NCBI GenBank assembly: GCA_002408465.1
Contig: DHSM01000006.1
Span: forward strand, 131,392-195,391
Direction of reading: 5' to 3'
Source: Firmicutes bacterium UBA5286
Lineage (GTDB): Bacteria; Bacillota; Proteinivoracia; UBA4975
DNA: 64,000 nt
This document shows positions 11,775 to 38,460 of the stretch, piece by piece. The position numbers and the translations under genes are program-made. Numbering within the stretch: the stretch's first letter is position 1; each line of letters starts with the position of its first letter. Below the pieces are notes generated by a model. That model was not told the DNA's origin and did no database searches. It saw only the letters and a program-made list of their open reading frames with translations.

Positions 11775-12446
11775 CTACGCAATCATCCCGTCCACAATGT
11801 TCAAGGTTCTATTGCAGTATTGGCTGATATTCGGATTATGAGTAACAATTATCACTGTCTTGCCTTCCCTGTTCAGTTTTTGAAGCAAGCTTAGAATTTC
11901 ATCTGAAAGCCTTGTATCCAAAGCTCCTGTTGGTTCATCCGCCAAGATAATCTCTGGCTCATTTACCATTGCCCTAGCAATAGCGACCCGCTGTTTTTCA
12001 CCACCAGAGAGATTACGGGTAAGCCGTTTGGCCAATTTACTAATCTCAAGTTTTTCCATTATTTTATAAGCACGCCTTTCCATATCGCTCCATTTAACCG
12101 ACTTATTAAATAGCAAGGGGGTGATGACATTCTCTATGGCCGTGCGATCATTTAAGATGCCGAAATCCTGAAGAACAAACCCAACCTGTTTGTTTCGAAT
12201 TTTGGCAAGCATGTTCTGTTTTAATGTGCTGACCAATTGTCCGTTAAGGAAGTACTTACCATCCGTGGGATAATCAAGACAGCCAATAATGTTCAATAAG
12301 GTTGACTTTCCAGAACCAGATGGGCCCATTATGGCTAACATTTCACCTTTATCAACAGTCAAACTGATCCCCTTTAGGGCATGTATTTGTTCTGGAGTAT
12401 TCTGATTATAGATTTTATGTAAGCCGTGAACCTGAATATAAGTCAT
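11775..12446 (-). CDS. ABC transporter ATP-binding protein (MacB/LolD/FtsE-like)
   Basis: Walker [10 protein letters not shown], signature [14 protein letters not shown], Walker [12 protein letters not shown]. Confidence 0.9.
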
Positions 12447-12452
12447 TATTTT

Positions 12453-13724
12453 TCATCCCTTTCTCATTAAGCTGGAAAGACTTCTGTCTCTGTATAAAAA
12501 TAAAACTGTAACCATTGAAACTAACATATATGCAGCACATATTCCTAAAGTGACTATTATACTCAGAGGACTATATAGCATCGTGTCAGTATTCTCTGCT
12601 GCAGATATTCCCACTTTCACAGCGCCAAGAGCAACTACTGCAGGCAGGAAGACAATTATTGCGTTACATGCCATTTCCACAAAAAACAGATGGGGCCAGT
12701 CCATTCCATGCATAAGATAAATCACGACTTCCTGCCTGTTTTTTAACATCTGCAATATATTGTAGCCACTGATTCCAATTAAGGATATTAGGGCAACTAC
12801 CAAACCAAGACTGATAAAGCTCCTATTCCCTATAATAATCTGCTTTCTTTCCCTGCTATCTATATCTTCAAAAGAAATAAATTTTCCTAACCCTTCCGCC
12901 TCAGCTTGATTGTTCCACTGGTCTACTAATAAATCTATAGGTCCATTACCTTCAAAAAAACAGATAAAACTCGGATCTTCGGCGGTAAATTGTTTAATAT
13001 TGTCATCGCCCAACCCAAAGGGCGGCAAAATACAAAAGAAATCTCTGCTATGGGAGATTCTTTTTCCCACAAGATCTGAGAGCAAAATGCTATCTATATT
13101 TCCACCGGGAAAGGTGTAATAGCAATATTTATTTTGCAAAACTCCTATTACCGTAGTTTTTACCTTATACAATTCCTCATTATGTCCGATGGTCAAATCC
13201 ATTTGAGACCCCAACCCGTACATTTTGCTTAATGGACCGCTAACTATTATAGGTACAGTCCCGTTGGTAGTTAACAAGTCTCTTAACTTACCCTCCCTTA
13301 AAGGAAGAAACAGACTTTCCAGCAACACAGTGTCATAAACCTGGAAACCAGCCAGGGCATATTCCTGTTGTTCTGTGTCCCAAACCAATCCCATTCCAGC
13401 GTGGACGGTTCCAACAGCAATTATATCCTGATACCTGGTGATACTAGTTTTCATTTCATAGTAGCTGTTGAAAATATCCTCAGAGCCATCATATATGTTG
13501 CCTGTTTTTCCCCCGATTAAATTGCAGAAGCGTTCAGCCGGCAAAAATAGCACAGCATTATCTAGCTTGGAAGTCTTTATCAGATTTCGGGACTGATTAA
13601 CATAAGCGAACTTTGCAGAAAGTATGTTAAATATCAAACACATAAGCATAATCTGAGTCATTAACACAATAATACTACCTTTGTTTTTCCACATTCCCTT
13701 GCAGATAATGTACAGATTTTTCAC
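12453..13724 (-). CDS. FtsX-family ABC permease (MacB-type, large extracytoplasmic domain)
   Basis: N-terminal TM, about 250-aa periplasmic-type domain, three C-terminal TM helices. Stop overlaps the ATPase start region. Confidence 0.7.
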   Translation of the reverse strand: MKNLYIICKGMWKNKGSIIVLMTQIMLMCLIFNILSAKFAYVNQSRNLIKTSKLDNAVLFLPAERFCNLIGGKTGNIYDGSEDIFNSYYEMKTSITRYQDIIAVGTVHAGMGLVWDTEQQEYALAGFQVYDTVLLESLFLPLREGKLRDLLTTNGTVPIIVSGPLSKMYGLGSQMDLTIGHNEELYKVKTTVIGVLQNKYCYYTFPGGNIDSILLSDLVGKRISHSRDFFCILPPFGLGDDNIKQFTAEDPSFICFFEGNGPIDLLVDQWNNQAEAEGLGKFISFEDIDSRERKQIIIGNRSFISLGLVVALISLIGISGYNILQMLKNRQEVVIYLMHGMDWPHLFFVEMACNAIIVFLPAVVALGAVKVGISAAENTDTMLYSPLSIIVTLGICAAYMLVSMVTVLFLYRDRSLSSLMRKG

Positions 13725-14863
13725 TGCCAGTTTCCCCCAATATGCCGTGCAATTTGGCGCCTCAGCGCCTGGGGCATCAGCCTAGATACCGTCCATGCTA
13801 TTGCATGGGAAAATAATAGGGTCAAGAATAGACAGCAAATATATAGAATCCAGATATTGGTTATATCTATCCTGTAGTAAAGGTACCCTAATGGTATAAG
13901 AAGCGGTGATACAGTGTGGTAAACCAACAAACCCAGTCCGAAAGATACTGATGTAATGATAATAGCTTCAAATACTATATGGGAATACAACCAGAATCTT
14001 GTGCATCCACAAATAATATAGGTGTAGTATTTTTTGGTATTATAACTAATCCAATATCTATAAAAAGAAAAGACGTTAACCAAACTAAGTCCTACTGCTA
14101 ATACGATTAATAATAACAGGAGATAGATTTCATATAAATACTTCTGATCGCTGGGAACCGGAAGTGAAAGTGACTCATGAGGAAACAGGGAATAAAATTT
14201 GTCATTAAACCGCTCTATTTGACTTTCCGTAAGTGCGGTTTCAAAATAGAAATCTACTGTTGCACAAGATCCTGCAACTTTTTTATATTCTTTGAAGGGT
14301 ATGATCGCATTTCTTTCATTAACTAATTCCGGAGACCCTTTTACAGGCGATATTACCGGAAAAACCCCTACGCCAATTACATTATACTTGTTACCCTGAA
14401 TGGCAAATTGGGCCCCGCTGATATTCATGAGTTTATCAAAGTCGAGAAGGCAACTTGAAAGCAAAACCGGCCTCTCTGTATTGATGGCTGAATTAAAGTC
14501 TCGTCCTGTTTCCAGCACATAGCCTATGGAATTGCCATAATAGCCTGTTAGAATATAGTCGCCATCCTCAATATAGGTATGGGCATAAAGTCTGCTGATT
14601 TCTGGGAGATAGTTACTGGTATAAATTTCCTGCTCAATAAATTGGAGAACGTTTTTTAGATTTGAGTTGTCAAAGTACATGGTAAAGTGGCGCAAGCTCA
14701 TATGAATACTATCCAGTTCCTTATAGCGTGCTATATTATCGGCATAGAAGTATATAAATGCTGAGAAACATGTTGTTAAGCCAAGCAACATCACAAAAAA
14801 AATCAAAGTCTTTTTTTTGATAAAATCAATGACATCATAAATGACATGAAAAATAAACTTCAT
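13721..14863 (-). CDS. FtsX-family-like ABC permease (second permease)
   Basis: Same topology (N-terminal TM, large loop, C-terminal TM bundle). Start at MKFIF preceded by AAAGGAGA. ATGA overlap with the downstream gene. Confidence 0.6.
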   Translation of the reverse strand: MKFIFHVIYDVIDFIKKKTLIFFVMLLGLTTCFSAFIYFYADNIARYKELDSIHMSLRHFTMYFDNSNLKNVLQFIEQEIYTSNYLPEISRLYAHTYIEDGDYILTGYYGNSIGYVLETGRDFNSAINTERPVLLSSCLLDFDKLMNISGAQFAIQGNKYNVIGVGVFPVISPVKGSPELVNERNAIIPFKEYKKVAGSCATVDFYFETALTESQIERFNDKFYSLFPHESLSLPVPSDQKYLYEIYLLLLLIVLAVGLSLVNVFSFYRYWISYNTKKYYTYIICGCTRFWLYSHIVFEAIIITSVSFGLGLLVYHTVSPLLIPLGYLYYRIDITNIWILYICCLFLTLLFSHAIAWTVSRLMPQALRRQIARHIGGNWQ

Positions 14864-15091
14864 AAGGGTCTCCTTTCGTAAAAGGACTGTATTTCTTGTA
14901 TACATTTCTCCTAGTTTTTTGTTATTCCATCATCTTTCCCTGTGAGGAATATACCAAATATAATATATTGAGTCAATGTTTTAGATATACCCCCTGACTG
15001 AACCGAGTAAATAGTGGATATTAATGCATGGGAGAATCATCCTCTTACTGGATACATTATAAAGACTTCTTCTGCTTCAAAAGTAAAAACG

Positions 15092-15122
15092 GCTCCCAGA
15101 GGAAGCCGTCCTATCTGCACCA
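15092..15122 (-). terminator. Terminator downstream of the ABC exporter remnant
   Basis: acggctcc-caga-ggaagccgt hairpin with a preceding A-run on plus, giving a T-run on minus. Confidence 0.45.
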
Positions 15123-15142
15123 CATAGACATTGTTTTTGTCC

Positions 15143-16124
15143 TCACGCGCTCCGGGCCGTGAGGATACCATCGGTCATCCTGTAGACCTGGTCGGCGGCG
15201 TCGGCGATGGCCAAGTCATGGGTGACCACCACGACGCAGTAGTTTTCAGCGTGGGCCAGGTGCCGGAGTATGTCCATGACCCTGTTGCCGTTGGCGGTAT
15301 CCAGATTGCCAGTGGGCTCGTCGGCCAGCAGCAATCGTGCCCCGGTGGAAAGCGCCCGGGCAATGGCCACCCGCTGCTGCTCCCCGCCCGAGAGGTTGGA
15401 CAGAAAGCGCCGCCGCTTTTCCTCGGCAATGTCGTGCCCCTGGCCCTGGCCCAGGAGCGGGCCAGGGAAATGCTGGCCGCCGAAAGTACACACTGAAATT
15501 GGCGCAACTCAAATAGTCGATACTCTCTTATATCGGCGCCGTTAATCCTGATTACACCTTTATCCGGGTCATATAGCCGCAGTAGCAGCTTTATAAGCGT
15601 TGACTTGCCCGAGCCATTCAGCCCTACCAGGGCTACCTTTTCTTGACGGTGGAGGAGAAAACTCACATCTTCCAGGGCAGGTACTTGGCCCCTGGATAAG
15701 TAAAGGAAACATGCTCAAATTCTATAGATTCGACCCTGTCAAGACGCTTAGTACCCTTATCCGCAATGCGGTTATGGAAGCTCTCCAGGGTTTTAATATT
15801 TGCGATCTTTAACTGATTGTCATAAATCTGCATGGCTGAGTGGGTAAGCAGGGAAATGGCCGCCCAAAGCTGGCTTAAGAGGCCGGTATACAGGGAATAA
15901 TCCCCCACTGTCGCCATACCGTCCAGCACCCGAAACGCAATATTGACGCCGATGAGCACAACGACGACCTCCGGCAGACAATCCAGCAGGCAGGTCAGGA
16001 TTGTACGTTTCCGGGTCATGTCCCTCCGCTTGCCAAAAAGCTCCTTCCACAGCCGGGCATAACGATCTTTTAAGCGTTCTCCCGCATTGAACACCCGAAC
16101 ATCCTGGGCATAGCCCTTGTCCAC
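15143..16124 (-). pseudogene. Frameshifted, N-terminally truncated ABC exporter (permease-ATPase fusion) remnant
   Basis: Three overlapping minus-strand ORFs in different frames. 15663-16124 holds the end of the TM domain and the start of the NBD (IEFEHVSFTYP). 15175-15666 has Walker A GLNGSGKSTLIKLL then goes out of frame. 15143-15493 has [15 protein letters not shown], Walker B LLLADEPTGNLD and the H-loop VVVVTHD. Upstream is too short for a full TMD. Confidence 0.75.
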
Positions 16125-16262
16125 AGCAATGCTCTGATAATAGCTCTTATGCGTTCCCCGTTTATCTGGGCAATGCTCAGATGGTACAGGGACTTTGTGT
16201 ATTTTGCAGCCGCAATTGAGCTAATTTATAGTCACTTTCTTCATCTAGTGGAACTCCTTTCG

Positions 16263-17594
16263 CTAGTTGCAGGCTATATCCTGTTTCTTAAAGATAACGG
16301 CGCCCACTATAAAAAGCAAGATTGTTGCTATGGACAGGGTGAGCAGGCTGCTGAGGTAGGTAGAAGCCAGGCTCCCTTCCAGTAAGGGAACGACATCGGC
16401 CTTGGAGAAGAGATCCCAGGCAGTTGTGCTTAAGTTAGGTATTATGTTGCCAAAGGCGCTACCCAATACAAAGATTCCGGCGGCGACTAGGTGGGCAATG
16501 ACCTCATTCTTAACCAGGATTGAAATCAATAATCCCAGAGCGGTGCAGAAGAGGATAAAGAGCAGTATTTGCACAGCAGCCAGGCCGAAGAACTGCCAGA
16601 GGGGAATAAAGTCATATAATTCCAGTCTGGATACATCCGCCAGAACGGGAATCTTGCTGAGTCCGGTGTCGTAAAACCCTATATTTATTCCCATATCTTT
16701 AAATACTGTAAAGCTTGACAGGACATTCTTATCAAGAAGTACGGGGTAGTTTAATCCTCGGAAGCCGTGCCTGATACCCAGAATTAGAATGGACAAGATC
16801 TGGGGAAGAACTATTACGCTGCTGCTGGCGAAAAAACTCAGGGAGAGCTTGCGCAACAAATAACGAGTCCTGCTCAAGGGAGCAGATAAACTCACCTTTA
16901 TTACGCCAGAGCTCTTATCTCTGTGCAACATATTGACAGACATTAAGAGGACGACGATTCCCAAAATGTTGGGTAAACCACGACGCAGAAAATTAAACGT
17001 GAAAGCCCAGGGGGAAGTATCGTGGGCCCCGGTTGGGGGGAGGCCGGTCTTTACCATCTCCAAGTAATAACATGCATTTATCATGATAGCTAAAACTTCA
17101 TCTGGTGCAAATGTTGCCGCTGCGGCAGGGTGTACCATAAAACTTGGGTAGTCCAACTCCTCAGTAATATTCTCCCAGTCGCCGCCAAAAAACTGTTGGG
17201 GACATGGTGAAACGTTTTTTAAAAGGTGGTCCCAAGATAGCAACCGGTCTTCTGCCCGGGACCTATGGTATTCCACCCAGTCTCGCGACATATATGATTC
17301 ATAAATTCTCCTCGCCAATAAAACACGATAGTGGTAATACTCCTGGGATTTCTCATACTCCTCGGGGGATGCACTAATTGCCCCTCCCCGCCACCAGCTC
17401 TCAACTATATCCACAACGCCCTCATTTCCACCAATACTAGCTTTTAGAGCTGCTATCTTTTGACTCTCTGCACCCTTACTTTCATGCAAGGCTTGCTGAA
17501 TAAAGACCAATTGAAACAAGAAGAGAATCAGGATGAGGATTAAAAACTTATAGCTTTTACATATGCTTTTCAGTTCAAGGAAGAAGGATTCCAT
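16263..17594 (-). CDS. ABC-2 family transporter permease
   Basis: Multi-TM membrane protein at the end of the ATPase + 2 permease operon. Large extracytoplasmic loop then a TM bundle. Confidence 0.65.
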   Translation of the reverse strand: MESFFLELKSICKSYKFLILILILFLFQLVFIQQALHESKGAESQKIAALKASIGGNEGVVDIVESWWRGGAISASPEEYEKSQEYYHYRVLLARRIYESYMSRDWVEYHRSRAEDRLLSWDHLLKNVSPCPQQFFGGDWENITEELDYPSFMVHPAAAATFAPDEVLAIMINACYYLEMVKTGLPPTGAHDTSPWAFTFNFLRRGLPNILGIVVLLMSVNMLHRDKSSGVIKVSLSAPLSRTRYLLRKLSLSFFASSSVIVLPQILSILILGIRHGFRGLNYPVLLDKNVLSSFTVFKDMGINIGFYDTGLSKIPVLADVSRLELYDFIPLWQFFGLAAVQILLFILFCTALGLLISILVKNEVIAHLVAAGIFVLGSAFGNIIPNLSTTAWDLFSKADVVPLLEGSLASTYLSSLLTLSIATILLFIVGAVIFKKQDIACN

Positions 17595-18838
17595 TATGCC
17601 GGGCCTCCCTTCAGGTCTTGTTTATTCAGGACAACCAAGCTTAGAGCCAGGAGCAGGAATGTACATCCCCCCAGCAGGGTCAGGTAGGCCAGAGCGGAAC
17701 CAATATAAAAGCCCTGAAAAACATCCTTAAAGCCCAGGGCTGCAAAGGGCCAGGCCAGGTAGAAGCTGCTGCCGGTGGGGAAGAGAATCCGGAAGCTGTA
17801 ATCCAGGAAAAGCAAGCAAATAACAGCGCTCAGGGCATTGGCCGTGCTGCCAAGCAGTAATGAAGCTGTTCCGGTAAGGGCGAGAGTAAAACAGGACATC
17901 AACAGGTAGATTGGAATCACTCCCGCAATGTATGCAGACCAGGGCACCAGGGGTAGCACAGTGTCGGCAGCGGAGGGATCCGTGACCAAACTGGTATAGG
18001 AGCCCTCCATGTAAAAGACTGGGTAGTTTATGTCTCCCAATCCACGAACCAAGGACAGAACACCAAAGGTCAGGGCGATGAGCCCTGTGACCAAAACGAT
18101 ACTGGCAGTTATGTTGAGACCAAACTTCACTACATGAATAATGCTGCGTTTATGGGGCTGGGAGTACAGGACCTTGTATGCTCCGCCTTCAATGTCTTCA
18201 GCAAATAAGTCCATGCTCAGCATCAATAGGGTAATTACTACAATTAGTATCCAGGGGAAGCTGGTGAGATGGTAGAGGAAGTTGGCTGCAGTCATTTCAT
18301 AGGGACTGTTTAGGGGGTCAATATTATCCCTGAGCAGGGCCTGATTCACTACCAGGCGCTCTTCTATTTCTAAGGGATTAGCGCTTTGGGCAAGAATACT
18401 TGTCGACTCAACAAGACCTTCTTCAAAACCGTTGAGCAAATGTTGGTCCCGGGCTATCCAGAGCTCCAGCTTTTCCTGGGCTTTGTCTTTACTGTATTCA
18501 CCGGCTAAGATTGACTGCTGGCAGCAATACACGCGCTGCCACTGTAGGAAGTTTGCCTTCTTCTCCAGTTCAGCAATCACTACTTCGGCGTTGGGTGTGG
18601 TGCCAGCTTTGGCCGCTTCCCGGGCCATCTCCAATTCTTTGTGGACATTCGTCCCCTCAATCTGAATTAAGGCCAGTTCCTGATTAAGTTCAACTTCGAG
18701 GGCAGCCCAGTAATTATTGTCTTGGATAATGTTGTAGGTAATCATGGCCAGGAGGGAAGCTAGAAACACCAGGAGAACAACTAGGTTCTTCTTAGCATAC
18801 CAGAACTTAAGACACTCAAATTGCAGTATCGCCTTCAT
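17594..18838 (-). CDS. ABC-2 family transporter permease
   Basis: N-terminal TM, large soluble loop, C-terminal 5-6 TM. Start overlaps the stop of the ATPase gene. Confidence 0.65.
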   Translation of the reverse strand: MKAILQFECLKFWYAKKNLVVLLVFLASLLAMITYNIIQDNNYWAALEVELNQELALIQIEGTNVHKELEMAREAAKAGTTPNAEVVIAELEKKANFLQWQRVYCCQQSILAGEYSKDKAQEKLELWIARDQHLLNGFEEGLVESTSILAQSANPLEIEERLVVNQALLRDNIDPLNSPYEMTAANFLYHLTSFPWILIVVITLLMLSMDLFAEDIEGGAYKVLYSQPHKRSIIHVVKFGLNITASIVLVTGLIALTFGVLSLVRGLGDINYPVFYMEGSYTSLVTDPSAADTVLPLVPWSAYIAGVIPIYLLMSCFTLALTGTASLLLGSTANALSAVICLLFLDYSFRILFPTGSSFYLAWPFAALGFKDVFQGFYIGSALAYLTLLGGCTFLLLALSLVVLNKQDLKGGPA

Positions 18839-19779
18839 CAGAGGACTTCCTTCTCATAGATGTGGCTGTATAGGTTTTCAATATTCGCGGTCTGGGGCAC
18901 AATTCCCCTGAGCTCCCGGCCATCGGCCAGGATGGTGGTTATGACTCGGGTGCAATGCGTAATATCTGATAAAGATATCAGAAGCTCGCTTTCCCCGGCC
19001 AGGAAGTCCTGGAGCAGGCCCTCAGTCTTCAGCTTGCTCAGCATGGCCAGGTCCTGCTCCTGACGATCGACATAAAGCTTGTAACTGAGGACTGCCACGT
19101 CAGCCTGGGCCTTTTCCTGGGAGACAATCTCCCCGTCCTTAATAAAGATGTTGCGGGAGGATATCTTCTCCATCTCTATGAGTTGGTGGGAGGAGAACAG
19201 GATTCCGCAGCCCTCCCGGGCAAGCCCCTTTATCATACTCCGCAACTCAAAAACGCCCTGGGGATCCAAACCGTTAAAGGGCTCGTCCAGAATTAAGAAA
19301 GTAGGCTTGGGCAGGATGGCCACCGCCAGTGCCAGGCGCTGTTTCATCCCCATGGAGTAGGCTCCAGCCTTTTTCTTCAGGGCATGGCCCAGCCCGGTAA
19401 ACTCAATGACCTCTTCTAAGCGCTTCCGGGGGATTTGCCTGAGGCTGGCGAAGACCTTCAGGTTTTCTATCCCCGTCAAGTTGAAATACAGCCCCGGAGC
19501 CTCAATTAGGGCGGAAAGGTGACTGAGAGCCTGGCTGCGCTCCTTATACAGATCGTGCCCGGCAATCTCGACCTTGCCGCTTTCTGGGAAAACCAAGTTG
19601 GCGATGCACTTCATGGTAGTGCTCTTGCCTGAGCCGTTTGGGCCGATAAAGCCCAGAATCTCGCCGGTTTCCAGTGTAAAGGAAACGTTTTTTAAAACAT
19701 GCAGCTTGCCGAAAGACTTATTAAGGTTTTCAACAGACAAAATTCCCACTGCGTTACCTCCCATTGTCATTAGTAGCAT
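18838..19779 (-). CDS. ABC transporter ATP-binding protein (ABC-2 type)
   Basis: Walker A GPNGSGKST, signature SMGMKQRLALA, Walker B LILDEPFNGLD. Confidence 0.9.
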   Translation of the reverse strand: MLLMTMGGNAVGILSVENLNKSFGKLHVLKNVSFTLETGEILGFIGPNGSGKSTTMKCIANLVFPESGKVEIAGHDLYKERSQALSHLSALIEAPGLYFNLTGIENLKVFASLRQIPRKRLEEVIEFTGLGHALKKKAGAYSMGMKQRLALAVAILPKPTFLILDEPFNGLDPQGVFELRSMIKGLAREGCGILFSSHQLIEMEKISSRNIFIKDGEIVSQEKAQADVAVLSYKLYVDRQEQDLAMLSKLKTEGLLQDFLAGESELLISLSDITHCTRVITTILADGRELRGIVPQTANIENLYSHIYEKEVL

Positions 19780-20539: not shown

Positions 20540-21064
20540 TTAACTGCGGGTTTTGGCAGCGGCGGCGGTTTTCATTCCCTCGGGTATTCCGTCGGCCAAG
20601 CGCTCCAGCTCAGCTTCCAAGCGATTGAATTGCCACAGCCAGACACCAGTTTCCAGGGCCAGGCGGCGGGCTTTTCTGGTAAAGCCCTCTTGGCTGACGA
20701 GAATGGCAAACTCGCAGTTCAGCCTGCTCCGGGCTTCGCTTACAGCAATGACGGGTCTCTCATTGATGGGCTTGCGCCACCATTTGATGTGGACATAGGT
20801 TCTTGCTCCCAGCCTGGACAGTATATACTCCGCCCCCATGCGCCCCTGGTAGAGGACGTCTTCCACCTCATAACCATGGCAAAAAAAGTAGTCCAAAGCG
20901 GCGGCATTGCTGCCGGGAACGATTGAAACCTTCCGCCGGTGAAGCAACATGGCGGCCAGGTACACCAGGACAAGGCCGGCCAGCACCGGCCAGTAAGGTG
21001 AGGCAAAGCGGACAAATTCTTTAAGGGTGTGCCAGGCCAGCTTCAGCGCCTTTTCCATCAACAT
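20540..21064 (-). CDS. Membrane-anchored restriction-endonuclease-like (Mrr_cat/NERD-like PD-(D/E)XK fold) protein
   Basis: N-terminal TM (YWPVLAGLVLVYLAAMLL), then HGYEVEDVLYQGRMGAEYIL...YVHIKWWRKP...VIAVSEARS...ILVSQEGFTRKARRLALETGVWLW, which resembles the Mrr catalytic-core layout. Divergent, so family assignment is tentative. Confidence 0.4.
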   Translation of the reverse strand: MLMEKALKLAWHTLKEFVRFASPYWPVLAGLVLVYLAAMLLHRRKVSIVPGSNAAALDYFFCHGYEVEDVLYQGRMGAEYILSRLGARTYVHIKWWRKPINERPVIAVSEARSRLNCEFAILVSQEGFTRKARRLALETGVWLWQFNRLEAELERLADGIPEGMKTAAAAKTRS

Positions 21065-21085: not shown

Positions 21086-21496
21086 CTACTGGGGCTCGGC
21101 CCCGGCCTCTCGGCTGCCCAGTTTCTTTAAGAGGCGAAGCAGATATTCGTAATGGGGTTTCAATTCATTGTCCTTTTCCAGCTCTCTTTTTATCCTGATC
21201 ACCATCTGGTTGAGCACAAACGGGTTTTTCTGGTGGAAGACCATGATCATCCTTAAAGCAAGAGTGGTGTTGGTAAATGCCTTCTTAGCCCGGAGTTTTT
21301 GCATAAAGGCCCAAAAGCCTCTGTCCCGGGACATCAGGGTTGCATAGCATTCCTGCACCCGGCTGAGATGCAGTTCCAGGTAGTCCATAGCCCCTTCATA
21401 CACCTGCAGATCAAGACGAGGCTCCAGGAGTTTCTGGGCCGCCTCGATCCCGGGCAGAGGGCCATAGCGTATTTCAGGATTTTCCAGCAGTTTCAA
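21086..21496 (-). CDS. Hypothetical protein (136 aa), co-operonic with pepF
   Basis: ORF spaced about 21 nt from both neighbours. No recognisable motif. Confidence 0.4.
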   Translation of the reverse strand: MKLLENPEIRYGPLPGIEAAQKLLEPRLDLQVYEGAMDYLELHLSRVQECYATLMSRDRGFWAFMQKLRAKKAFTNTTLALRMIMVFHQKNPFVLNQMVIRIKRELEKDNELKPHYEYLLRLLKKLGSREAGAEPQ

Positions 21497-21517: not shown

Positions 21518-23320
21518 TTATAATAGCTGTTCTAATTCCGCCAGCAATTTTGAGAAGACCTGGAGGGTGGTTACAAGAGGTTTAGGCTCGGTCATATCCA
21601 CACCGGCGGCCTTTAAAATATTTAGGGGGTAATCTGAACCGCCGCTCTTGAGGAATTGCAGATAGCGCCCGGTTGCCTTCTGGTCCCCCGCCAGGACATT
21701 TTGCGCCAGGCAGGTGGCGGCGGCAAAGCCGGTGACATATTTGTAGACATAGAAATTGTAGTAGAAATGAGGAATCCTTGCCCATTCCATGCCGATGAGG
21801 TCATCCACTTCCATTTCCGGGCCGTAGTACTTCTTGTTGAGCTCAAGCCACAGGGCGCTGAAATCTTCATTGGTCATGGGCTTGCCGGCTTCACTGCGGG
21901 CGTAGATTTCCTTCTCGAACTCGGCAAACAGGGTCTGGCGATAGACCGTGCCCCTAATTGTCTCTAAATACTCATTGATGATATACAAGCGCTTTTGCTT
22001 GTCCGTAGTAACCTTCAGCAAGTGGTCGTTGAGCAGGGCTTCGTTCAGGGTCGAAGCCACTTCTGCCAAAAAGATGGGGTATTCGGACATAGAGGGGGGC
22101 AGAGTTGATCTGCTGTAATAGCTGTGCATGGAATGGCCCAGTTCATGGGCGAGAGTAGAAGCTGAATTCAGGGTGTCGTCATAGTTCAGGAGCATAAAGG
22201 GTTTAGTTGAGTAACTGCCCCAAGAGTAAGCGCCGCTGCGCTTGCCCTTGTTCTCATATACATCAATCCAGCCCTGGGTAAAAGCCTTGCTGGCATCCCT
22301 GACATACTCCGGACCCAAAGGTGCAAGAGCGGTAAGGACCATGTCCTTGCCGGTTTCGAAGGGCACTTCCAGCTTGGCCTCGGTCACCAGGGGGGCGTAG
22401 ATATCGTGCATACTGATTTGCTCAAGCCCCAGAACCCGCTTTTTCAGGCTTACATATCTGTGCAAGGGTTCCAGGTTGGCGTTGATGGTGTCGATAACAT
22501 TGTCGTAGACACTGACAGGAATATTGTCTTCAAAGAGGGCGGCCTCCCGGGAACTGGCAAAGTTCCGGGCCCGGGCAAAGAACATGCCTCCCTTGATTTT
22601 GCTGTTGAGGCTGGTGGCTAGGGTGTTAATAACCTTGCCATAAGTAGTGTACATGGCCTCGTAAGCTTCCCGGCGCACTTGTCTGTCCTGGGACTGCATG
22701 TACTTGATAAAGCGGCCATGGGAAAGCTCAACCTTTTCTCCGCTTTCGTCGCTGATTTCGGGAAAACGCATATCGGCGTTATTGAGCATTGAGAAAATAT
22801 TGTAGGGAGCATCGTCCATTTCTCCGGCCATGGCCAGCAGCTGCTCTTCCCGGGGGCTCAAGGTATGAGGTTTGCGGCGAAGGACATTATTCAGGAACTG
22901 CCGGTATTCATCCAGACCCGGCTCTTCACTTAAGAATCCGCTGACACGGCCATCCTCCAGGCTCAGAAGTTCAGGCTCGATAAAGGATACAGCCGTTTGC
23001 AGCTCAACTCCCAGAGAACCTGCCCGGTCGGCCATACCCTGATGTTTCGAGTGAGCAGTGTCTTCGTCCCGACGTAAATTGGCAAAGACAATAACCTGAG
23101 CTCCCAGGACCATGATTTCATCCCGGAGTTTAAGACACTCCAGCAGCGTCTTGGCCCCTTCTCCTAAACGGCCGGAATACCCCTTAATCTTTTCAGAGAG
23201 CTCTTTAACTTTGGCAAAATCCTTTTCCCAGCCGGCATCATCGGCATAGACAGATTCCAAATCCCACTTGTACTTCTGCTGGATCTCTTGTCTGGCGGGG
23301 ACCCCGCCTTTTTTTACTTC
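21518..23320 (-). CDS. pepF: Oligoendopeptidase F (M3B family)
   Basis: HEXXH zinc motif HELGHSMHS and M3 fold. Likely GTG start (VTEVKKGG) preceded by AGGAGGG; the longer track ORF is an extension. Confidence 0.9.
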   Translation of the reverse strand, partial: EVKKGGVPARQEIQQKYKWDLESVYADDAGWEKDFAKVKELSEKIKGYSGRLGEGAKTLLECLKLRDEIMVLGAQVIVFANLRRDEDTAHSKHQGMADRAGSLGVELQTAVSFIEPELLSLEDGRVSGFLSEEPGLDEYRQFLNNVLRRKPHTLSPREEQLLAMAGEMDDAPYNIFSMLNNADMRFPEISDESGEKVELSHGRFIKYMQSQDRQVRREAYEAMYTTYGKVINTLATSLNSKIKGGMFFARARNFASSREAALFEDNIPVSVYDNVIDTINANLEPLHRYVSLKKRVLGLEQISMHDIYAPLVTEAKLEVPFETGKDMVLTALAPLGPEYVRDASKAFTQGWIDVYENKGKRSGAYSWGSYSTKPFMLLNYDDTLNSASTLAHELGHSMHSYYSRSTLPPSMSEYPIFLAEVASTLNEALLNDHLLKVTTDKQKRLYIINEYLETIRGTVYRQTLFAEFEKEIYARSEAGKPMTNEDFSALWLELNKKYYGPEMEVDDLIGMEWARIPHFYYNFYVYKYVTGFAAATCLAQNVLAGDQKATGRYLQFLKSGGSDYPLNILKAAGVDMTEPKPLVTTLQVFSKLLAELEQLL

Positions 23321-23488
23321 TGTCACTATATTCCCTCCTGCTTTATTTCTAACTTTTCTCACCTTAAGTATTCTGCTGCCTAGTAAAAAAAACCTTCCTA
23401 AATAAACAATAAAAATGATATACTGGCCAGACAAGAGAGAGAAAGCGCCTTTTCCAAGGCGCTTAATTCTTTTTGCTCCCACCTGCTC

Positions 23489-24718
23489 TTATTTACAGAG
23501 GACATGATGATGCACCTTTTTCCCTTTGCGTACGAAAATCTTATCATCTTTCAGCCAACTGGGGTCGATGATTAGCTCAAAATCGTCTATCTTCTGTTCA
23601 TTAATCGTGAGCCCTCCCTGCTGGATGAGGCGACGGCCTTCGCTCTTGCTAGATGTAAGCCCGCACTCAATGAGCAGGTCCAGGATGGGGATGCCTGGCT
23701 GCAACCGCCCCTTTTCTATTTGGGTTGTGGGGATTGCCCCTGCCTCTTTGCCCCCGGCAAACAACGCCCGGGCGGCTTGGCGGGACTTGACCGCTTCTTC
23801 TTCACCATGGACCAGTTTTGTAACTTCAAAGGCCAGCAGTTCCTTGGCTGCATTTATTTCCTGGCCCTGAATGGCGGTAGCGGCATCAATTTGTTCCACC
23901 GGCAGGAAAGTATAGAGCTTGAGGAAGCGATTGACGTCCCGGTCATGAGTGTTGCGCCAGTACTGGAAGAAATCATAGGGGCTGGTGAGCCGGGGATCAA
24001 GCCAGACGGCGCCGGCCTCGGTCTTGCCCATCTTCTTGCCGTCGGCAGTCTCCAGGAGGGGAATGGTCAGGCCGTAAGCTTCCTCTTGTTCCAGGCGCCG
24101 GATGAGGTCGATGCCGGAGATGATATTTGACCACTGATCGTCGCCGCCGATCTGCAAGCGGCAACCATGGCGGCGAAAAAGGGTTAGGAAGTCGTAGGAC
24201 TGGAGAAGCATGTAGTTAAACTCAATGAAGGACAGCCCCTTCTCCATCCTGGACTTGAAACATTCGTAGGTGAGCATGCGGTTGACGGAAAAATGCACGC
24301 CAATCTCCCTCAAGACTTCGATGTAGTTTAGCTTCAGCAACCAGTCGGCATTGTTTACCACCCTTAGTTCGGGGCCCTGGACACAGTCCAGGATTTTTTG
24401 GACCTGGGCGCCAATAGCCTGGGCATAAGAGGAAATAGTGCCGGGGTCAAGCATCTGCCGCATTTCTGTCTTGCCGCTGGGATCACCGATCATGGTGGTG
24501 CCGCCGCCAATCAGGGCGATAGGATGATGACCCGCCTTGCGCAGATGGGCCATAACCATCATGGGCAGCAGGTGGCCGATGTGGAGGCTGTCAGCAGTGG
24601 CATCAAAACCAGCATAAAAAACCGTAGGCTTTTGCAGCTGCTCTGCCAAGGGGTCCTCATGGGTTACCTGTTTGACCAGGCCCCTTTCGGTCAGGGTCTT
24701 TAATACATCTGTGGTCAT
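23489..24718 (-). CDS. tyrS: Tyrosine--tRNA ligase
   Basis: HIGH motif (FDATADSLHIGHLLP), KMSKS-type KMGKT and C-terminal S4 domain. Start at MTTDVLK; the track ORF extends into the T-box leader. Confidence 0.95.
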   Translation of the reverse strand: MTTDVLKTLTERGLVKQVTHEDPLAEQLQKPTVFYAGFDATADSLHIGHLLPMMVMAHLRKAGHHPIALIGGGTTMIGDPSGKTEMRQMLDPGTISSYAQAIGAQVQKILDCVQGPELRVVNNADWLLKLNYIEVLREIGVHFSVNRMLTYECFKSRMEKGLSFIEFNYMLLQSYDFLTLFRRHGCRLQIGGDDQWSNIISGIDLIRRLEQEEAYGLTIPLLETADGKKMGKTEAGAVWLDPRLTSPYDFFQYWRNTHDRDVNRFLKLYTFLPVEQIDAATAIQGQEINAAKELLAFEVTKLVHGEEEAVKSRQAARALFAGGKEAGAIPTTQIEKGRLQPGIPILDLLIECGLTSSKSEGRRLIQQGGLTINEQKIDDFELIIDPSWLKDDKIFVRKGKKVHHHVLCK

Positions 24719-24724
24719 ACTTTT

Positions 24725-25000
24725 TCCCTCCAAAATTACATTCAAAATAAAACAAACCCGCCCCCCAAAAAGGGACGAGTTGATAGCCCGCGGTACCACC
24801 CTGCTTGACTGCCCCAGGGGGCAGCCCGCTTTATTGGCCGATAACGGGGCCGCCGCCGCAGCCTACTGAGCATAGCCTTTGGGTGCGGAGCTCCGGGGTG
24901 TACGCGTCCCCCTTTGTTGCCGGTTTCCACTGCCACCGGCTCTCTGTAAACAAAGACTGGGTCTGCTCTCCCCTTCAACGCTTAAATTATTGATTGCTAT
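24725..25000 (-). promoter_or_regulatory. T-box riboswitch leader of tyrS
   Basis: Minus-strand AGGGTGGTACCGCGGG (plus 24787-24802) is the conserved T-box sequence. A GC-rich structured leader with a T-rich tract lies before the RBS. Exact 5' end not determined. Confidence 0.75.
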
Positions 25001-32871: not shown

Positions 32872-34212
32872 ATGAAATTTAAGCACAAAAATATTATTAT
32901 TGCAGTCCTTGTCATAATCTGCTTTCTTCCCGGTCTTGCTGGGGCAAAGGCTCAAGAGCCTCAGACAGAAGCCCAGGCTGCAATTCTCATTGAGCAGGTC
33001 TCGGGAACAGTCCTCTACGCCAAGGACGCCTACCGCAGAATGTATCCCGCCAGCACCACCAAAATTCTCACTGCCTTGCTGGCAGTGGAAACAGCCGATA
33101 TGGATGCCCTGGTAACTGTTGGCCCGGAAATCAATTTAGTGTCAAAAGGCAGCAGCCTTGCCCGCCTCAGCGTCGGCGACACAATCACCCTCCGGGATTT
33201 GATCTATGGCCTCATGCTGCCCTCAGGCAATGACGCTGCTTATACCATTGCCGCCTACCTTGCCCGTCGCCAGTCTGGAAATCCTGATTTGTCAGCGCCT
33301 GAAGCCATTAAAGTCTTTGTTGACATGATGAATGCAAGAGCCCGGAAACTGGGAGCAAAGGATACACATTTTACCGGGCCTGATGGCTTTCATGCAGCCG
33401 ACCACTATACTACCGCCTATGATCTTAGTCTCCTGGCCAGAGAGGCGATGAGGCATCCTTTTATCCGCACAGTGGTTTCCACCGCTGATTACACCCCTGA
33501 TTCCTGGAAGGGCAGCAACACATGCAGCTGGAAAAACAACAATCTGCTCATTCACTCCCTCAATGATTTTTATTATCCCGCTGCCACCGGCCTGAAAACA
33601 GGATATACCGGGCAAGCAGGATTTTGCCTGATAAGCTCCGGCAGCAGCAATGCTTTGGACCTTATTGCCGTGTGCTTAAAGACTTCCGAAGCCGGGCGCT
33701 GGTCAGACGCCAAGGCATTGCTCGATTATGGGTTTGCCAATTATACCTGGCTGCAGCTGGTCAAGGCCAAGGAAGCAATACACACTGTCAGCATCACTAA
33801 CGGCGACTACGGCCAACCCGACGCGGTAATGCTCACCGCCGCAGAAGGTTTTGCCGGAGTCTTTGCCCAAGAAGATGCCGGACGCATAAAAAAAGAAATA
33901 GTCATTGACAATAACCTGCTGGAAACAAAGAATTCCTTGGGAGAAGCGGCAGCAGCTGCCCAAGGAGAGTATGCGCTGCGGGCGCCACTGTCTAAAGGCC
34001 AGGTTGTCGGTCAGGTAAAATTCACCCTGGGGGGCAGAGAATTGTTTTCTGCTGATTTGATTGTCACGGCCGATGTGGCCCCCCGGCCCTGGTGGCGGAC
34101 TACGCCTGCCCTGACTATTATTGTCTGTGGACTTATTTTTGTGGCTGCCATCACCGCTCTCAGCATAAGGCGCCGCCGCAAGACAGAATTGGCGCCTGGG
34201 AACAGCCACTAA
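32872..34212 (+). CDS. D-alanyl-D-alanine carboxypeptidase (PBP5/6 family, with C-terminal TM anchor)
   Basis: Signal peptide, SXXK (ASTTKIL), SXN (LPSGND), KTG (LKTGYT). Confidence 0.85.
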   Translation: MKFKHKNIIIAVLVIICFLPGLAGAKAQEPQTEAQAAILIEQVSGTVLYAKDAYRRMYPASTTKILTALLAVETADMDALVTVGPEINLVSKGSSLARLSVGDTITLRDLIYGLMLPSGNDAAYTIAAYLARRQSGNPDLSAPEAIKVFVDMMNARARKLGAKDTHFTGPDGFHAADHYTTAYDLSLLAREAMRHPFIRTVVSTADYTPDSWKGSNTCSWKNNNLLIHSLNDFYYPAATGLKTGYTGQAGFCLISSGSSNALDLIAVCLKTSEAGRWSDAKALLDYGFANYTWLQLVKAKEAIHTVSITNGDYGQPDAVMLTAAEGFAGVFAQEDAGRIKKEIVIDNNLLETKNSLGEAAAAAQGEYALRAPLSKGQVVGQVKFTLGGRELFSADLIVTADVAPRPWWRTTPALTIIVCGLIFVAAITALSIRRRRKTELAPGNSH

Positions 34213-34280: not shown

Positions 34281-34306
34281 TATCCCGGTGCTATTGCCCC
34301 GGGTTT
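34281..34306 (+). terminator. Weak possible terminator after the carboxypeptidase gene
   Basis: cccgg-tgctattgc-cccggg then tttatacttctt. Confidence 0.3.
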
Positions 34307-34313
34307 ATACTTC

Positions 34314-35321
34314 TTGAGGAGGAGTAAAATGGAACATATAATTGCAATCATAAAAAAACTCTTTAGGGATATTTATACTACTCTCGACTTTTCTACGGAT
34401 TTACTCCTCTATATTGGCTTGGGAGTGCTCTTGCTCCTGCTGATCATCCTGATGATTGCCAGGAAGAAACCTCGCAAACAAAAAAGCCAAAGTCCTAAGG
34501 ACAACGAGTCCGATTTTTTAGAGGTAGGACCGGAGCCGGTGATTGTCTATGGCAGAAACAAGACACAGGAAGCCCCCCAGCCAGAACCAGTGCCGGAATT
34601 CCAACTAGAGCTGACTCCGGAACCTGAACCGGAACCTACGCCTCAGTTTAATTTGACTCCAGAACCAGAGCCGGAACCCATGCCTCAGTTTGATTTGACA
34701 CCAGAACCGGAGCAGGAACCCGTTCCTCAGTTCAACATAACTCCCCAGCCTAAGCGGCAACCCCTGGCCCAAGCGGATTTCCCGCCGGAACCTGAACCGG
34801 AACCTGTTTCACAGTTAAAACCGGAGCCTTTGGACCTCTCTTCCTTGCCTCCGGCTCCTGAAACTTCCCCATTTCAACGTTTCATGAATGCTGGCCCCGG
34901 GCAGGAGGCGGCAGCAGCTTTTATGCCGGCCCTGGCTCAAGATCCCTTGCCACTTCTGGAATCCGATTTTGCCAGCGAAATCCTGCTGTTATTCAGCAAG
35001 CAGGGCTTCACCATTGAAAAAGTCGCCTATCACGGGACCTACGGCGCAGATTTTATCGTAGCCGCCGAAGGCATGAGGGCTTATGTCCAGGTTAAAGACT
35101 GGAAGAAAAAAGCGACCCCCCGCACTGTTCAGGAAGCTCGCTATTATTCCAATACTAATGGCTGCCACAAAACCATCCTCATCCCCGTGGCTGGGTATAC
35201 CAGCGCCGCCAACCGCGAAGCCGCCCAGCGGGCAGTCTCCCTTTGGAACGCTAAGACTTTGAAAAAAATCAGAAACGGTGAGCTCTCCCTGGAAGAGTGG
35301 ATAGCAGCCTCAAGTTTTTAA
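34314..35321 (+). CDS. Membrane-anchored protein with PEPEP repeats and a C-terminal restriction-endonuclease-like (Mrr_cat) domain
   Basis: N-terminal TM (LLLYIGLGVLLLLLIILMIA), PEPEPxPQF(N/D)LTPEPE repeats, then a C-terminal YHGTYGADFIV...AYVQVKDWKK...VQEARYY...ILIPVAGYTSAANREA region, which matches the Mrr_cat D...QxK layout. Confidence 0.55.
   Translation: MRRSKMEHIIAIIKKLFRDIYTTLDFSTDLLLYIGLGVLLLLLIILMIARKKPRKQKSQSPKDNESDFLEVGPEPVIVYGRNKTQEAPQPEPVPEFQLELTPEPEPEPTPQFNLTPEPEPEPMPQFDLTPEPEQEPVPQFNITPQPKRQPLAQADFPPEPEPEPVSQLKPEPLDLSSLPPAPETSPFQRFMNAGPGQEAAAAFMPALAQDPLPLLESDFASEILLLFSKQGFTIEKVAYHGTYGADFIVAAEGMRAYVQVKDWKKKATPRTVQEARYYSNTNGCHKTILIPVAGYTSAANREAAQRAVSLWNAKTLKKIRNGELSLEEWIAASSF
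34600..34800. repeat. About 63-bp (21 codon) tandem repeats encoding the PEPEP linker
   Basis: Three successive ccggaacc...cctcagtt(t/c)aa(t/c)...actcc(a/g)gaacc units. Confidence 0.6.
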
Positions 35322-35352
35322 GCCGGCAATGCCGGCTTTATTTTTTTGACTA
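35322..35352. terminator. Terminator between convergent genes
   Basis: gccggca-atg-ccggc followed by tttattttttt. Confidence 0.6.
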
Positions 35353-38456: not shown

Positions 38457-38460
38457 TTTT

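Follow-up and report, generated by a model that had tools for sequence, protein, structure and literature searches.

The window examined here, 64,000 nucleotides from Firmicutes bacterium UBA5286 (contig DHSM01000006.1), raises the question of what a nuclease-fold domain does when it is fastened to the membrane. Two ORFs pose it, both reported in the earlier note and both found: one of 174 aa at 20540-21064 (minus strand; gene A) and one of 335 aa at 34314-35321 (plus strand; gene B), the latter with TTG 34314 as first codon. Homologues starting with MEH.../MEK... and strong ribosome-binding sites put the true starts at ATG 21058 for gene A (20540..21058, 172 aa; GAGGGGG) and at ATG 34329 for gene B (34329..35321, 330 aa; GGAGGAG), the latter methionine being the start in 23/23 homologues. 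The reading tentatively preferred below is that A and B are paralogous core-gene membrane proteins whose Mrr-type PD-(D/E)XK domain is held on the cytoplasmic side and may act on DNA reaching the membrane.

Each protein contains a single N-terminal hydrophobic segment, in agreement with the earlier note; the transmembrane call is based on hydropathy and flanking charge only. In gene A, the anchor PYWPVLAGLVLVYLAAMLL (20942..20998, minus strand) is followed by HRRK, has a mean Kyte-Doolittle hydropathy of 1.87 over 19 residues and lies, in the AlphaFold model, within one long helix (residues 2-45). A connector of about 12 residues separates it from the Mrr_cat domain (20615..20893, minus strand; residues 58-150). 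In gene B, the transmembrane helix (34398..34460, plus strand; ORF residues 29-49, AlphaFold helix 28-50) has a mean hydropathy of 3.16 over 19 residues. Directly after it comes a basic cluster, RKKPRKQKSQSPK (34461..34499; net +7), which, judged by its charge, is the main positive-inside signal of gene B.

In the gene B family, the C flank of the helix is richer in K/R than the N flank in 24/24 members (5-9 vs. 0-2 K/R in most of them), with a cluster of +6 to +8 after the helix and a neutral or acidic N flank; the segment ahead of the hydrophobic helix (24 residues) is net-negative. In the gene A family, the bias is weak or reversed in distant members (P0009, P0039), and the N-out orientation, predicted by the positive-inside rule only, is less clear in A than in B. 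The flanking charges predict an N-out/C-in single-pass topology for both proteins, so that the Mrr_cat domain would lie at the cytoplasmic face. The side of the membrane had been left open earlier; a cytoplasmic location is what the positive-inside rule predicts, and this argues against an extracellular nuclease for DNA uptake. A cleavable signal peptide was considered and ruled out by the 20-24 residues before the hydrophobic segment and by the basic cluster after it.

The family assignment is clear in both proteins. Against a curated gathering threshold of 21 bits, Pfam Mrr_cat (PF04471) matches gene A with 42.8 bits (E 6.4e-11) and gene B with 59.7 bits (E 3.8e-16; 34965..35267, plus strand; residues 218-318). 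The two are paralogs, with 39% identity over 88 aa (E 7e-15). In the AlphaFold models (mean pLDDT 83.5 for gene A, above 90 in the domains), the core secondary structure is H-E-E-E-H-E-H-E and contains the alpha-beta-beta-beta-alpha-beta core fold of restriction endonucleases. Foldseek gives a probability of 1.00 to 1y88, 7e8r, 4f0p and 5gke; 1y88 is the best match for gene A, and 7e8r, 1y88, 5gke and 4f0p are matched by the domain of gene B. The best fold matches are AF1548, EcoT38I, MspJI, EndoMS and FokI, and RPB5, a non-catalytic protein with the PD-(D/E)XK fold, is also among them. Profile, model and fold comparison thus agree on the Mrr/PD-(D/E)XK fold claimed earlier for both proteins.

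Other families contribute little. The inactive restriction endonuclease family NA-iREase1 (PF22722) scores 24.4 bits with B and 12.2 bits with A, under its gathering threshold of 27 bits, and overlaps the stronger Mrr_cat match. NERD (PF08378), raised earlier as a candidate, gave no Pfam match for A or B at E <= 1, nor did the Mrr_N winged-helix recognition domain; no holin family was matched in Pfam and nothing meaningful in NCBIfam. A PDB sequence search with a profile of both families gave no match at E <= 0.01 and only spurious ones up to E 10.

The active site is incomplete. Residues E172/D199/D203/Q219/K221 of E. coli Mrr align with A220/T243/D246/Q259/K261 in gene B (3/5 kept) and with N53/R75/E79/H92/K94 in gene A (one identical, two conservative). 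The core of the long protein had been described as clean; D246, Q259 and K261 are indeed kept, but Ala220 and Thr243 replace Glu and Asp. In the short protein, the Glu reported in place of Asp is E79, where the long protein has D246. Among the 143 nearest relatives, the five Mrr positions are conserved in 126, 130, 140, 137 and 142, respectively. The full set is absent from both A and B, which have neither the helix-1 Glu nor the first Asp of GDxGxD, both near-invariant in the relatives; with Glu for Asp and His/Gln for Gln in A as well, catalysis is uncertain. The absence of catalytic residues, which the earlier note held would count against its reading, is therefore partial: two of the five clade-conserved residues are missing in both proteins. 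The D/E-(Q/H)xK core is kept in nearly all members of the A and B families. Gene B strictly keeps D-QxK across its family, and the A family has His or Gln at the position of Q219. The residue aligned with D246 of gene B is the one replaced in the catalytic mutant D203A of E. coli Mrr (PMC5435990). The remaining basic surface, KDWKKKATPRT, is invariant, the domain is basic in A and B (pI about 9), and both paralogs end in conserved Ala-rich tails. Residue D262 of gene B (in KDW) was considered as a "migrated" catalytic acid and rejected, since strand alternation should turn it away from Q259 and K261; that position is Arg in 114/143 relatives.

Between anchor and domain, gene B carries two further elements. 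A short linear motif, FLEVGPEPVIVY (34515..34550, plus strand), is present in 23/23 orthologues and also in P0042-P0049 and P0053, with a mean column identity of 94% vs. 45% in the linker; second copies occur in P0017, P0018, P0032 and P0049. It is followed by a disordered, acidic and Pro-rich tether (34551..34925, plus strand), recognized from its composition and low pLDDT (<50 across most of residues 54-207). The tether has a net charge of -17 over the scored stretch of 123 residues and, as an orthologue average, 22% Pro and 21% Asp+Glu. The repetitive P/E-rich spacer noticed before is therefore real, but its unit is 42 bp (2.9 copies, 34612..34732, plus strand; Tandem Repeats Finder score 158, 86% matches) and not about 63 bp; it encodes 14 aa, xLTPEPEPEPxPQF. 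The suggestion that the tether varies in length holds as well: orthologues have tethers of 94-187 residues, and near-identical strains were seen to differ by indels only here, including an in-frame indel of 18 bp at the repeat array relative to a strain about 98% identical (L022).

A peptidase gene precedes each paralog. Next to gene A, on its upstream side and on the same strand, comes a conserved protein of 136 aa (hyp136; 21086..21496, minus strand), of unassigned family and with no Pfam, PADLOC or PHROG match. It adjoins gene A also in three related loci (L010, L011 and L012; 65-79% identity across these) and is probably cotranscribed with it. The gene for oligoendopeptidase F, pepF (M3 family by Pfam; 21518..23482, minus strand), would head a probable pepF-hyp136-A unit. 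Its translation probably begins some 52 codons into the listed ORF, the relatives at the same three loci having 602 aa; a hairpin follows tyrS at 23443-23464. In those relatives, gene A stands directly upstream of a hypothetical/UvrD-like/PDDEXK_1/RecJ block. A DUF1657 spore-associated gene adjoins gene A in L011. Gene B is immediately preceded, on its own strand, by a D-Ala-D-Ala carboxypeptidase gene, dac (Peptidase_S11 + PBP5_C by Pfam; 32872..34212, plus strand). These two genes adjoin each other also in L001-L008, L014-L017, L020 and L022-L023 but no longer do so in L009 and L018. Promoter scans between dac and gene B gave nothing convincing, so that operon status rests on strand, spacing and synteny. 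An intrinsic-terminator-like hairpin (35320..35348, plus strand; 8 pairs, 6 of them G-C, with a T run) occurs at the stop codon of gene B.

The wider neighborhood consists of pepF, tyrS, ABC transporters, dac, ZIP, LysO and two-component genes, and the synteny of both loci is kept among relatives down to 30-45% identity. The domain of gene B is 79-97% identical where the adjoining Dac is 59-78% identical and, by this comparison, is under strong purifying selection. As judged from these loci, A and B have been inherited vertically and belong to the core genes of a small lineage of uncultured Bacillota. Mobile and defense links are not apparent. No methyltransferase or specificity gene was found in the annotated neighborhood or in related loci, nor any zorABC neighbors or helicase domain at the A and B loci. 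PADLOC recognized no system, only weak domain-level matches to the Mrr-like region of ZorD and to PDC-S02, and PHROGs matched none of A, B, hyp136 and a 655-aa ORF. With the domain of gene B, tblastn against 50,697 phage records gave nothing, and against plasmids only six weak generic Mrr_cat matches (27-33% identity). No defense-island, phage or plasmid association was found, and stable synteny beside peptidase and housekeeping genes makes A and B unlike typical defense genes.

The combination of anchor and domain is not peculiar to this lineage. A word-indexed search with the joint domain profile returned only more members of the A family; an exhaustive search gave 11,221 profile matches, of which the nearest 143 listed after the A and B families are taken as the wider clade. 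All 143 match Mrr_cat, and 104 of them (about 73%) have an N-terminal hydrophobic anchor. The charge asymmetry recurs in 58/65 distant relatives with a single transmembrane segment (3.45 vs. 0.77 K/R). In the closest relatives the catalytic set is complete, and cytoplasmic DNA-binding modules occur among the 143 (Zn_ribbon_Top1 in four, FtsK_gamma in two). Transmembrane segment plus Mrr_cat is a common architecture in sequence databases, where some homologues are named "restriction endonuclease". This commonness, the A/B paralogy and the invariant linear motif of B had escaped the earlier note.

Gene A and gene B share with E. coli Mrr (EcoKMrr) and with AF1548 (PDB 1y88) the catalytic-domain family PF04471 and its fold. 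However, E. coli Mrr has an N-terminal winged-helix recognition domain where A and B have a membrane anchor, to which B adds a tether. Its E172 and D199 correspond to Ala and Thr in B and to Asn and Arg in A, and its D203 and Q219 to Glu and His in A. In overall layout, gene B resembles bitopic proteins of the ZipA or TonB type, which have an N-terminal anchor, a charged or Pro-rich flexible tether and a C-terminal globular domain. The orientation of ZipA is N-out/C-in, as predicted for gene B. The likeness extends over the anchor, the basic cluster, the Pro-rich unstructured tether and the globular C-terminal domain, but that last domain binds FtsZ or receptors in ZipA and TonB and has a nuclease fold in gene B; there is neither sequence nor fold kinship.

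Closer in possible function is SNIPE (PD-lambda-1), a membrane-bound nuclease that cuts phage DNA during injection, in which the anchor prevents self-cleavage and the N-out/TM/cytoplasmic-nuclease layout was tested (PMC13190303). A single N-terminal transmembrane segment with the N terminus outside is thus established in SNIPE and predicted for A and B; in all of them, the C-terminal nuclease-type domain is the best-conserved part and the region upstream is variable. However, SNIPE combines a GIY-YIG nuclease with DUF4041, a domain that binds DNA and the tape-measure protein (PMC13190303), whereas Pfam recognizes only Mrr_cat in A and B; gene B also has its disordered P/E tether and short invariant peptide. 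SNIPE is also patchily distributed like a defense gene, and A and B are syntenic core genes. Epona, a cassette of the Vibrio cholerae chromosomal integron with anti-phage activity, fuses a Mrr_cat domain to a holin-like domain with two transmembrane segments (bioRxiv 10.1101/2024.07.02.601686). As in A and B, Mrr_cat and transmembrane segment(s) occur in a single protein, a likeness drawn from the description of Epona; A and B differ from it in having one transmembrane segment, no holin-family match and a housekeeping context. The best PADLOC match, restricted to the Mrr-like domain, is ZorD of type I Zorya (E 8.8e-06 for B, 0.016 for A). For Zorya, too, the membrane is the place of action on DNA (PMC11946911, PMC12904381), but ZorD is soluble, an SNF2 helicase-nuclease that ZorAB recruits, and A and B have neither a helicase domain nor ZorA, ZorB or ZorC genes.

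A housekeeping, non-catalytic role is a possible though less probable account of the same observations: the degenerate domain would only bind DNA or a DNA structure and tie the chromosome to membrane or septum, acting in division or sporulation and coexpressed with the carboxypeptidase (B) or with pepF (A). The two clade-invariant acidic residues lost in both paralogs, beside a basic surface still invariant, point that way, as do vertical inheritance, the dac synteny kept in most clades examined and a gene B domain that evolves more slowly than its housekeeping neighbors; the invariant peptide suggests a fixed host partner, and the DUF1657 gene and the RecJ-containing block are compatible neighbors. 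However, strict retention of D-QxK in B, including the equivalent of Mrr D203, is unexpected in a pure binding domain, both NA-iREase1 scores stay below the cut-off, and the dac adjacency is lost at two loci. A reuse of the nuclease fold beyond DNA, perhaps for protein interaction or ligand sensing within a membrane complex, with FLEVGPEPVIVY and the Ala-rich C-terminal tail mediating assembly or turnover, is improbable. The incomplete active site, the weak overlap with the NA-iREase1 profile, the fold match to RPB5 and the conserved tails of both paralogs would suit it; the basic domain, the retained D/E-(Q/H)xK core and closest relatives with full catalytic sets, some of them with DNA-binding fusions, would not.

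Two further readings are very unlikely. Pro/Glu-rich repeats are a typical feature of spacers that span the wall or periplasm, and the gene adjoining B acts on peptidoglycan, so that an extracellular nuclease for DNA uptake or degradation can be imagined, its repeats crossing the peptidoglycan like those of TonB or of wall-spanning regions in Gram-positive bacteria. Against it stand the strongly basic cluster after a neutral or acidic N flank in the B family, the net-negative segment before the helix in place of a cleavable signal peptide, the same charge bias in most distant relatives, and the cytoplasmic DNA-binding modules of others. Just as remote is the idea that these are classical restriction enzymes, of type II or of the Mrr-like type IV, whose hydrophobic N-termini are incidental. 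Pfam family membership and the names given to some homologues favor it, but A and B show no Mrr_N or other recognition domain, no adjoining methyltransferase or specificity gene in the annotated neighborhood, core-like syntenic inheritance and an incomplete active site; the earlier view that these are not classical restriction enzymes stands.

The preferred reading, action of a cytoplasmic-face domain on membrane-reaching DNA, would work as follows. The anchor would keep the nuclease-fold domain off the bulk nucleoid, and the domain would bind, and possibly cut, only DNA that reaches the membrane, be it foreign DNA on its way in or the chromosome at a division or sporulation septum. Fold, family, paralogy, synteny, the hydrophobic anchor with its charge asymmetry, the conserved motif and the variable tether are observed; topology, DNA as the ligand, catalysis and the biological role are inferred. 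In gene B, the tether of about 170 residues would comprise the basic cluster, FLEVGPEPVIVY and the acidic Pro-rich disordered repeat region, its length drifting through repeat indels, and the FLEVGPEPVIVY peptide probably docks onto a partner. Such spatial logic was demonstrated experimentally for SNIPE and is implied for Epona; by analogy with both, A and B would most likely confine DNA binding or cleavage to the membrane. A more specific version for the gene B family, a "nuclease on a leash", is doubtful. There, the evolvable, repeat-encoded tether would set the reach, and docking of FLEVGPEPVIVY onto a membrane or envelope partner would control position or activation; the action of the domain would thus be limited to DNA that crosses or contacts the membrane, during phage or conjugative entry or during passage of the chromosome through the division or sporulation septum.

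Only recently has spatial restriction at the membrane been shown to allow a nuclease to discriminate between invading and chromosomal DNA (SNIPE, 2026; Zorya, Kiwa). If the leash version were true, the large N-out/C-in TM + Mrr_cat clade would be a widespread set of nucleases gated by their location, comparable to SNIPE but with another nuclease fold. If its members are membrane-restricted nucleases or DNA tethers, many "restriction endonuclease" entries in databases would need reinterpretation. Should the domain be inactive, A and B would represent a nuclease fold reused at the membrane in a core-genome role. With its putative docking peptide, tunable tether and compact domain, the gene B family may offer a tractable model.

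The two reading frames described in the earlier note are present at 20540–21064 (minus strand, 174 aa; the short membrane-anchored protein, A) and 34314–35321 (plus strand, 335 aa; the long one, B). The homologues of both start a few codons inside these frames, and strong ribosome-binding sites precede the inner starts (GAGGGGG before ATG 21058 in A, GGAGGAG before ATG 34329 in B); the true products therefore have 172 aa (A) and 330 aa (B). Residue numbers refer here to the ORFs as first listed, not to the corrected starts. With a curated cut-off of 21 bits, Pfam Mrr_cat (PF04471) scores 42.8 bits with A (E 6.4e-11, residues 58–150) and 59.7 bits with B (E 3.8e-16, residues 218–318), and the Mrr-type domain proposed for both proteins stands. 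In the same Pfam scan, NERD, also named in the earlier note, matches neither protein, and a NERD identity is rejected; both score under the threshold of NA-iREase1. AlphaFold models built from family alignments have a mean pLDDT of 83.5 for A and a pLDDT >90 over about residues 210–330 of B. In both, the order helix, three strands, helix, strand is that of the restriction-endonuclease fold. Foldseek against the PDB returns AF1548 (1y88; the structural representative of Mrr_cat), EcoT38I, MspJI, EndoMS/NucS, and FokI with probability 1.00, while a sequence search of the PDB detects no related solved structure. By score and by fold, A and B belong to Pfam Mrr_cat.

As judged from their alignment, A and B are paralogs, with 39% identity over 88 domain residues (E 7e-15) and, beyond the generic family, a common YxG..GA(D/E) motif, a conserved Cys, and an Ala-rich C-terminal tail. 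The tail ends in TAAAAKTRS in A (window 20540–20575, minus strand) and in IAASSF in B (35300–35318, plus strand; AAAGE in distant members); both look like non-polar C-terminal degradation tags. Word-indexed searches gave 23 B-type and about 18 A-type clusters, every one from uncultured Bacillota metagenome-assembled genomes, and the GTDB species representatives scanned contain no more than 7 loci, each with the title "Firmicutes/Bacillota bacterium." Searched exhaustively with HMMER, 1.84 billion representatives yield 11,221 matches at E ≤ 1e-3 but just 13 at E ≤ 1e-30. The two families are tight subfamilies within the very large Mrr_cat family. Among the 143 relatives listed next after them, all contain Mrr_cat, and in 104 one or more hydrophobic segments (Kyte–Doolittle mean ≥ 1.6 over 19 residues) precede it, so that an N-terminal anchor with Mrr_cat is a common, largely unstudied architecture and is not peculiar to this genome. 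Extra domains among the 143 are a topoisomerase-type zinc ribbon (n = 4) and an FtsK-gamma DNA-binding domain (n = 2). Among the matches of the exhaustive search, P0050 (329 aa) seems intermediate, with an A-like KWWKKK core and a long B-like linker without the FLEVGPEPVIVY motif of B; in P0051 (1163 aa), three tandem Mrr_cat-like stretches come after two hydrophobic segments.

In B, an amphipathic N-terminus of 23 residues precedes the TM helix. The helix is followed by the basic cluster RKKPRKQKSQSPK (net +7) and by a short acidic segment with the peptide FLEVGPEPVIVY at its end; then come ∼125 disordered residues (net charge −17 over the 123 scored), a conserved lead-in PLPxLES(D/E)(F/L)A, and the basic domain (pI 9.06). 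The tethers of orthologues average 22% Pro and 21% Asp + Glu. Outside the domain, the peptide is the best-conserved element, with a mean column identity in the B family alignment of 94% (domain 79%, linker 45%). It is recognisable in all B-type sequences, the most diverged included (e.g., FFEVDHRPVIVYRR), and four orthologues (P0017, P0018, P0032, P0049) have a second copy of the docking-like peptide, (E)PVIVY, farther along the tether. Such invariance within a tether that is disordered and drifts fast marks the peptide as a putative docking motif. The repeat within the tether (34612–34732, 2.9 copies) has a unit of 42 bp, encoding the 14 aa xLTPEPEPEPxPQF, and not of ∼63 bp as previously thought. 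Between orthologues, the tether varies from 94 to 187 residues. When the DNA of the window is compared with that of L022 (a strain ∼98% identical) and of L014 (a strain 79% identical at the protein level), every indel falls in the tether region; one is an in-frame indel of 18 bp at the repeat array. The range and the indels support the idea of a length-variable tether, with modest variation (6 aa) between close strains.

Lys and Arg are more frequent in the 15 residues after the helix than in the 15 before it in 24/24 B-family members (typically 5–9 vs. 0–2), and all but one of the 24 have a neutral or net acidic N flank. With the positive-inside rule, B is therefore predicted to be N-out/C-in, with tether and domain cytoplasmic. 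The bias is weaker in A (+3 to +4 vs. −2 to +3 in close relatives) and missing or reversed in some distant A-type relatives. The Lys/Arg count is higher after the helix than before it in 58 of 65 more distant relatives with a single anchor (mean 3.45 vs. 0.77). In the 65, helix and domain are a median of 31 residues apart (range 15–296); the spacing in A is thus typical, and that in B (∼170 residues) is on the long side.

The active-site alignment comprises the same 143 relatives and E. coli Mrr. The helix-1 Glu (Mrr E172) is conserved in 126/143, the two Asp of GDxGxD (D199, D203) in 130/143 and 140/143, and the Q-x-K residues (Q219, K221) in 137/143 and 142/143. At these positions, B has Ala220, Thr243, Asp246, Gln259, and Lys261 and A has Asn53, Arg75, Glu79, His92, and Lys94, with substitutions fixed per family (A220 in B and R75 in A invariant, N53 in A nearly so). 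Two accessory acidic residues are absent from both proteins, and neither has the full conserved set. Contrary to the "clean" core claimed earlier for B, Ala220 and Thr243 replace a nearly invariant Glu and Asp; the divergence reported for A, Glu for Asp, is seen in the alignment (Glu79 vs. Asp246 in B). The position mutated in the catalytic mutant of E. coli Mrr, D203A (PMC5435990), is Asp in B and Glu in A, and a minimal D/E...(Q/H)xK signature therefore persists. Judged by their sequences, A and B may or may not still cut DNA.

Upstream of B, on the same strand and after a 116-bp gap, is the gene of a membrane-anchored D-Ala-D-Ala carboxypeptidase (dac; Peptidase_S11 + PBP5_C), and a strong terminator-like hairpin (35320–35338) is found at the end of B. 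The gap contains a weak hairpin (34284–34315, plus strand; CCCGG/CCGGG, 10-nt loop, T-rich tail), below terminator-scan detection, that may modulate read-through into B. The dac–B pair is retained in relatives down to 30–45% identity with different other neighbors (L004–L008, L020) and is absent in L009 and L018. The domain of B (79–97% identity) is more conserved than the neighboring Dac (59–78%) and LysO (72–77%). The window also has a two-receiver hybrid histidine kinase clustered with a stand-alone receiver and a PAS histidine kinase (36372–40220, minus strand); the cluster is kept downstream of LysO in L001–L003. Near the locus, IS content differs between strains: L001 (14015–15106) and L003 (13885–15170) contain a Transposase_mut (MULE) insertion that L002 lacks and that was not seen at the equivalent position of the window.

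A is the last gene of a string with pepF (oligoendopeptidase F) and a 136-aa hypothetical protein (21-27-nt gaps), retained in L010–L013. The 136-aa protein (21086–21496, minus strand; 65–79% identity in L010–L012) adjoins A, has no Pfam, PADLOC, or PHROG match, and is a candidate partner of A. A T-box leader (24768–24987, minus strand; Rfam RF00230, 121.8 bits) is upstream of tyrS (23489–24799), and a 9-bp hairpin directly after tyrS (23443–23464) probably separates it from the pepF string. In relatives, A is followed by genes for a ∼650-aa hypothetical protein, a UvrD-like protein, PDDEXK_1, and RecJ, directly in L010 and L012 and with a small DUF1657 gene between in L011. In the window, two ABC-transporter gene sets (11775–19779) separate A from this DNA-processing block (4502–11588, minus strand), made of a 655-aa ORF without Pfam match, a UvrD-like helicase, a PDDEXK_1/Cas4-like nuclease, and RecJ; a functional link with A is possible. 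Mechanical ORF starts are placed too far upstream (7505–9826 and 9621–11588, and 21518–23482; all minus strand): the UvrD-like ORF has 773 aa (713–715 in relatives) and overlaps the preceding ORF by ∼200 nt, and that of pepF (21518–23482) has 654 aa (602 in relatives). In L016 and L017, pepF–tyrS–acyltransferase genes directly adjoin dac–B, so that the two paralogs bracket one compact conserved block.

Beyond the family, fold, paralogy, anchor, charge asymmetry, motif, tether, and synteny, which are directly observed, the membrane would display the basic nuclease-fold domain on its cytoplasmic side, where the domain would act on arriving DNA. Such membrane-restricted binding or cleavage of DNA is our tentative preference, put at somewhat less than an even chance. 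Both genes are vertically inherited core genes of the lineage under purifying selection, and searches of PHROGs, PADLOC, phage genomes, and plasmids gave nothing past weak generic Mrr-domain similarity. Because the core-gene behavior and the missing acidic residues count against defense, a plain defense role is disfavored and the preference is kept low. A non-catalytic tether between DNA and membrane, tied to envelope, division, or sporulation, is somewhat less probable. A role other than on DNA is improbable. The DNA uptake suggested earlier, if carried out by an extracellular nuclease, is very unlikely, the predicted N-out/C-in topology and the DNA-binding fusions of relatives pointing the other way. 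Equally slight is the chance of classical restriction enzymes, which the earlier note also set aside: neither gene is in a restriction-modification or defense context, and both proteins are without a recognition domain, for which reason an Mrr-type type IV enzyme is rejected.

For membrane-restricted action on DNA, the best experimental precedent is SNIPE, with an N-out single TM, a cytoplasmic DNA-binding domain, and a nuclease; the wild type cuts phage DNA during injection, and SNIPE without its TM is toxic because the chromosome is then cut (PMC13190303). In A and B, the N-out single TM and cytoplasmic nuclease are predictions, and the nuclease and middle domain of SNIPE are not theirs, so that identity with SNIPE is rejected. 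Epona, which is protective against phages, fuses an Mrr_cat domain to a 2-TM holin-like domain (bioRxiv 10.1101/2024.07.02.601686), whereas A and B have one TM and no holin domain, and this identity is also rejected. Zorya, to which A and B do not belong either, brings an Mrr-like nuclease to the membrane (PMC11946911, PMC12904381). Databases already contain many Mrr_cat domains and many proteins with the anchored architecture. In the literature searched, we did not find a description of what the B family combines, a putative docking peptide with a repeat tether and a reduced active site, in a core-genome setting.
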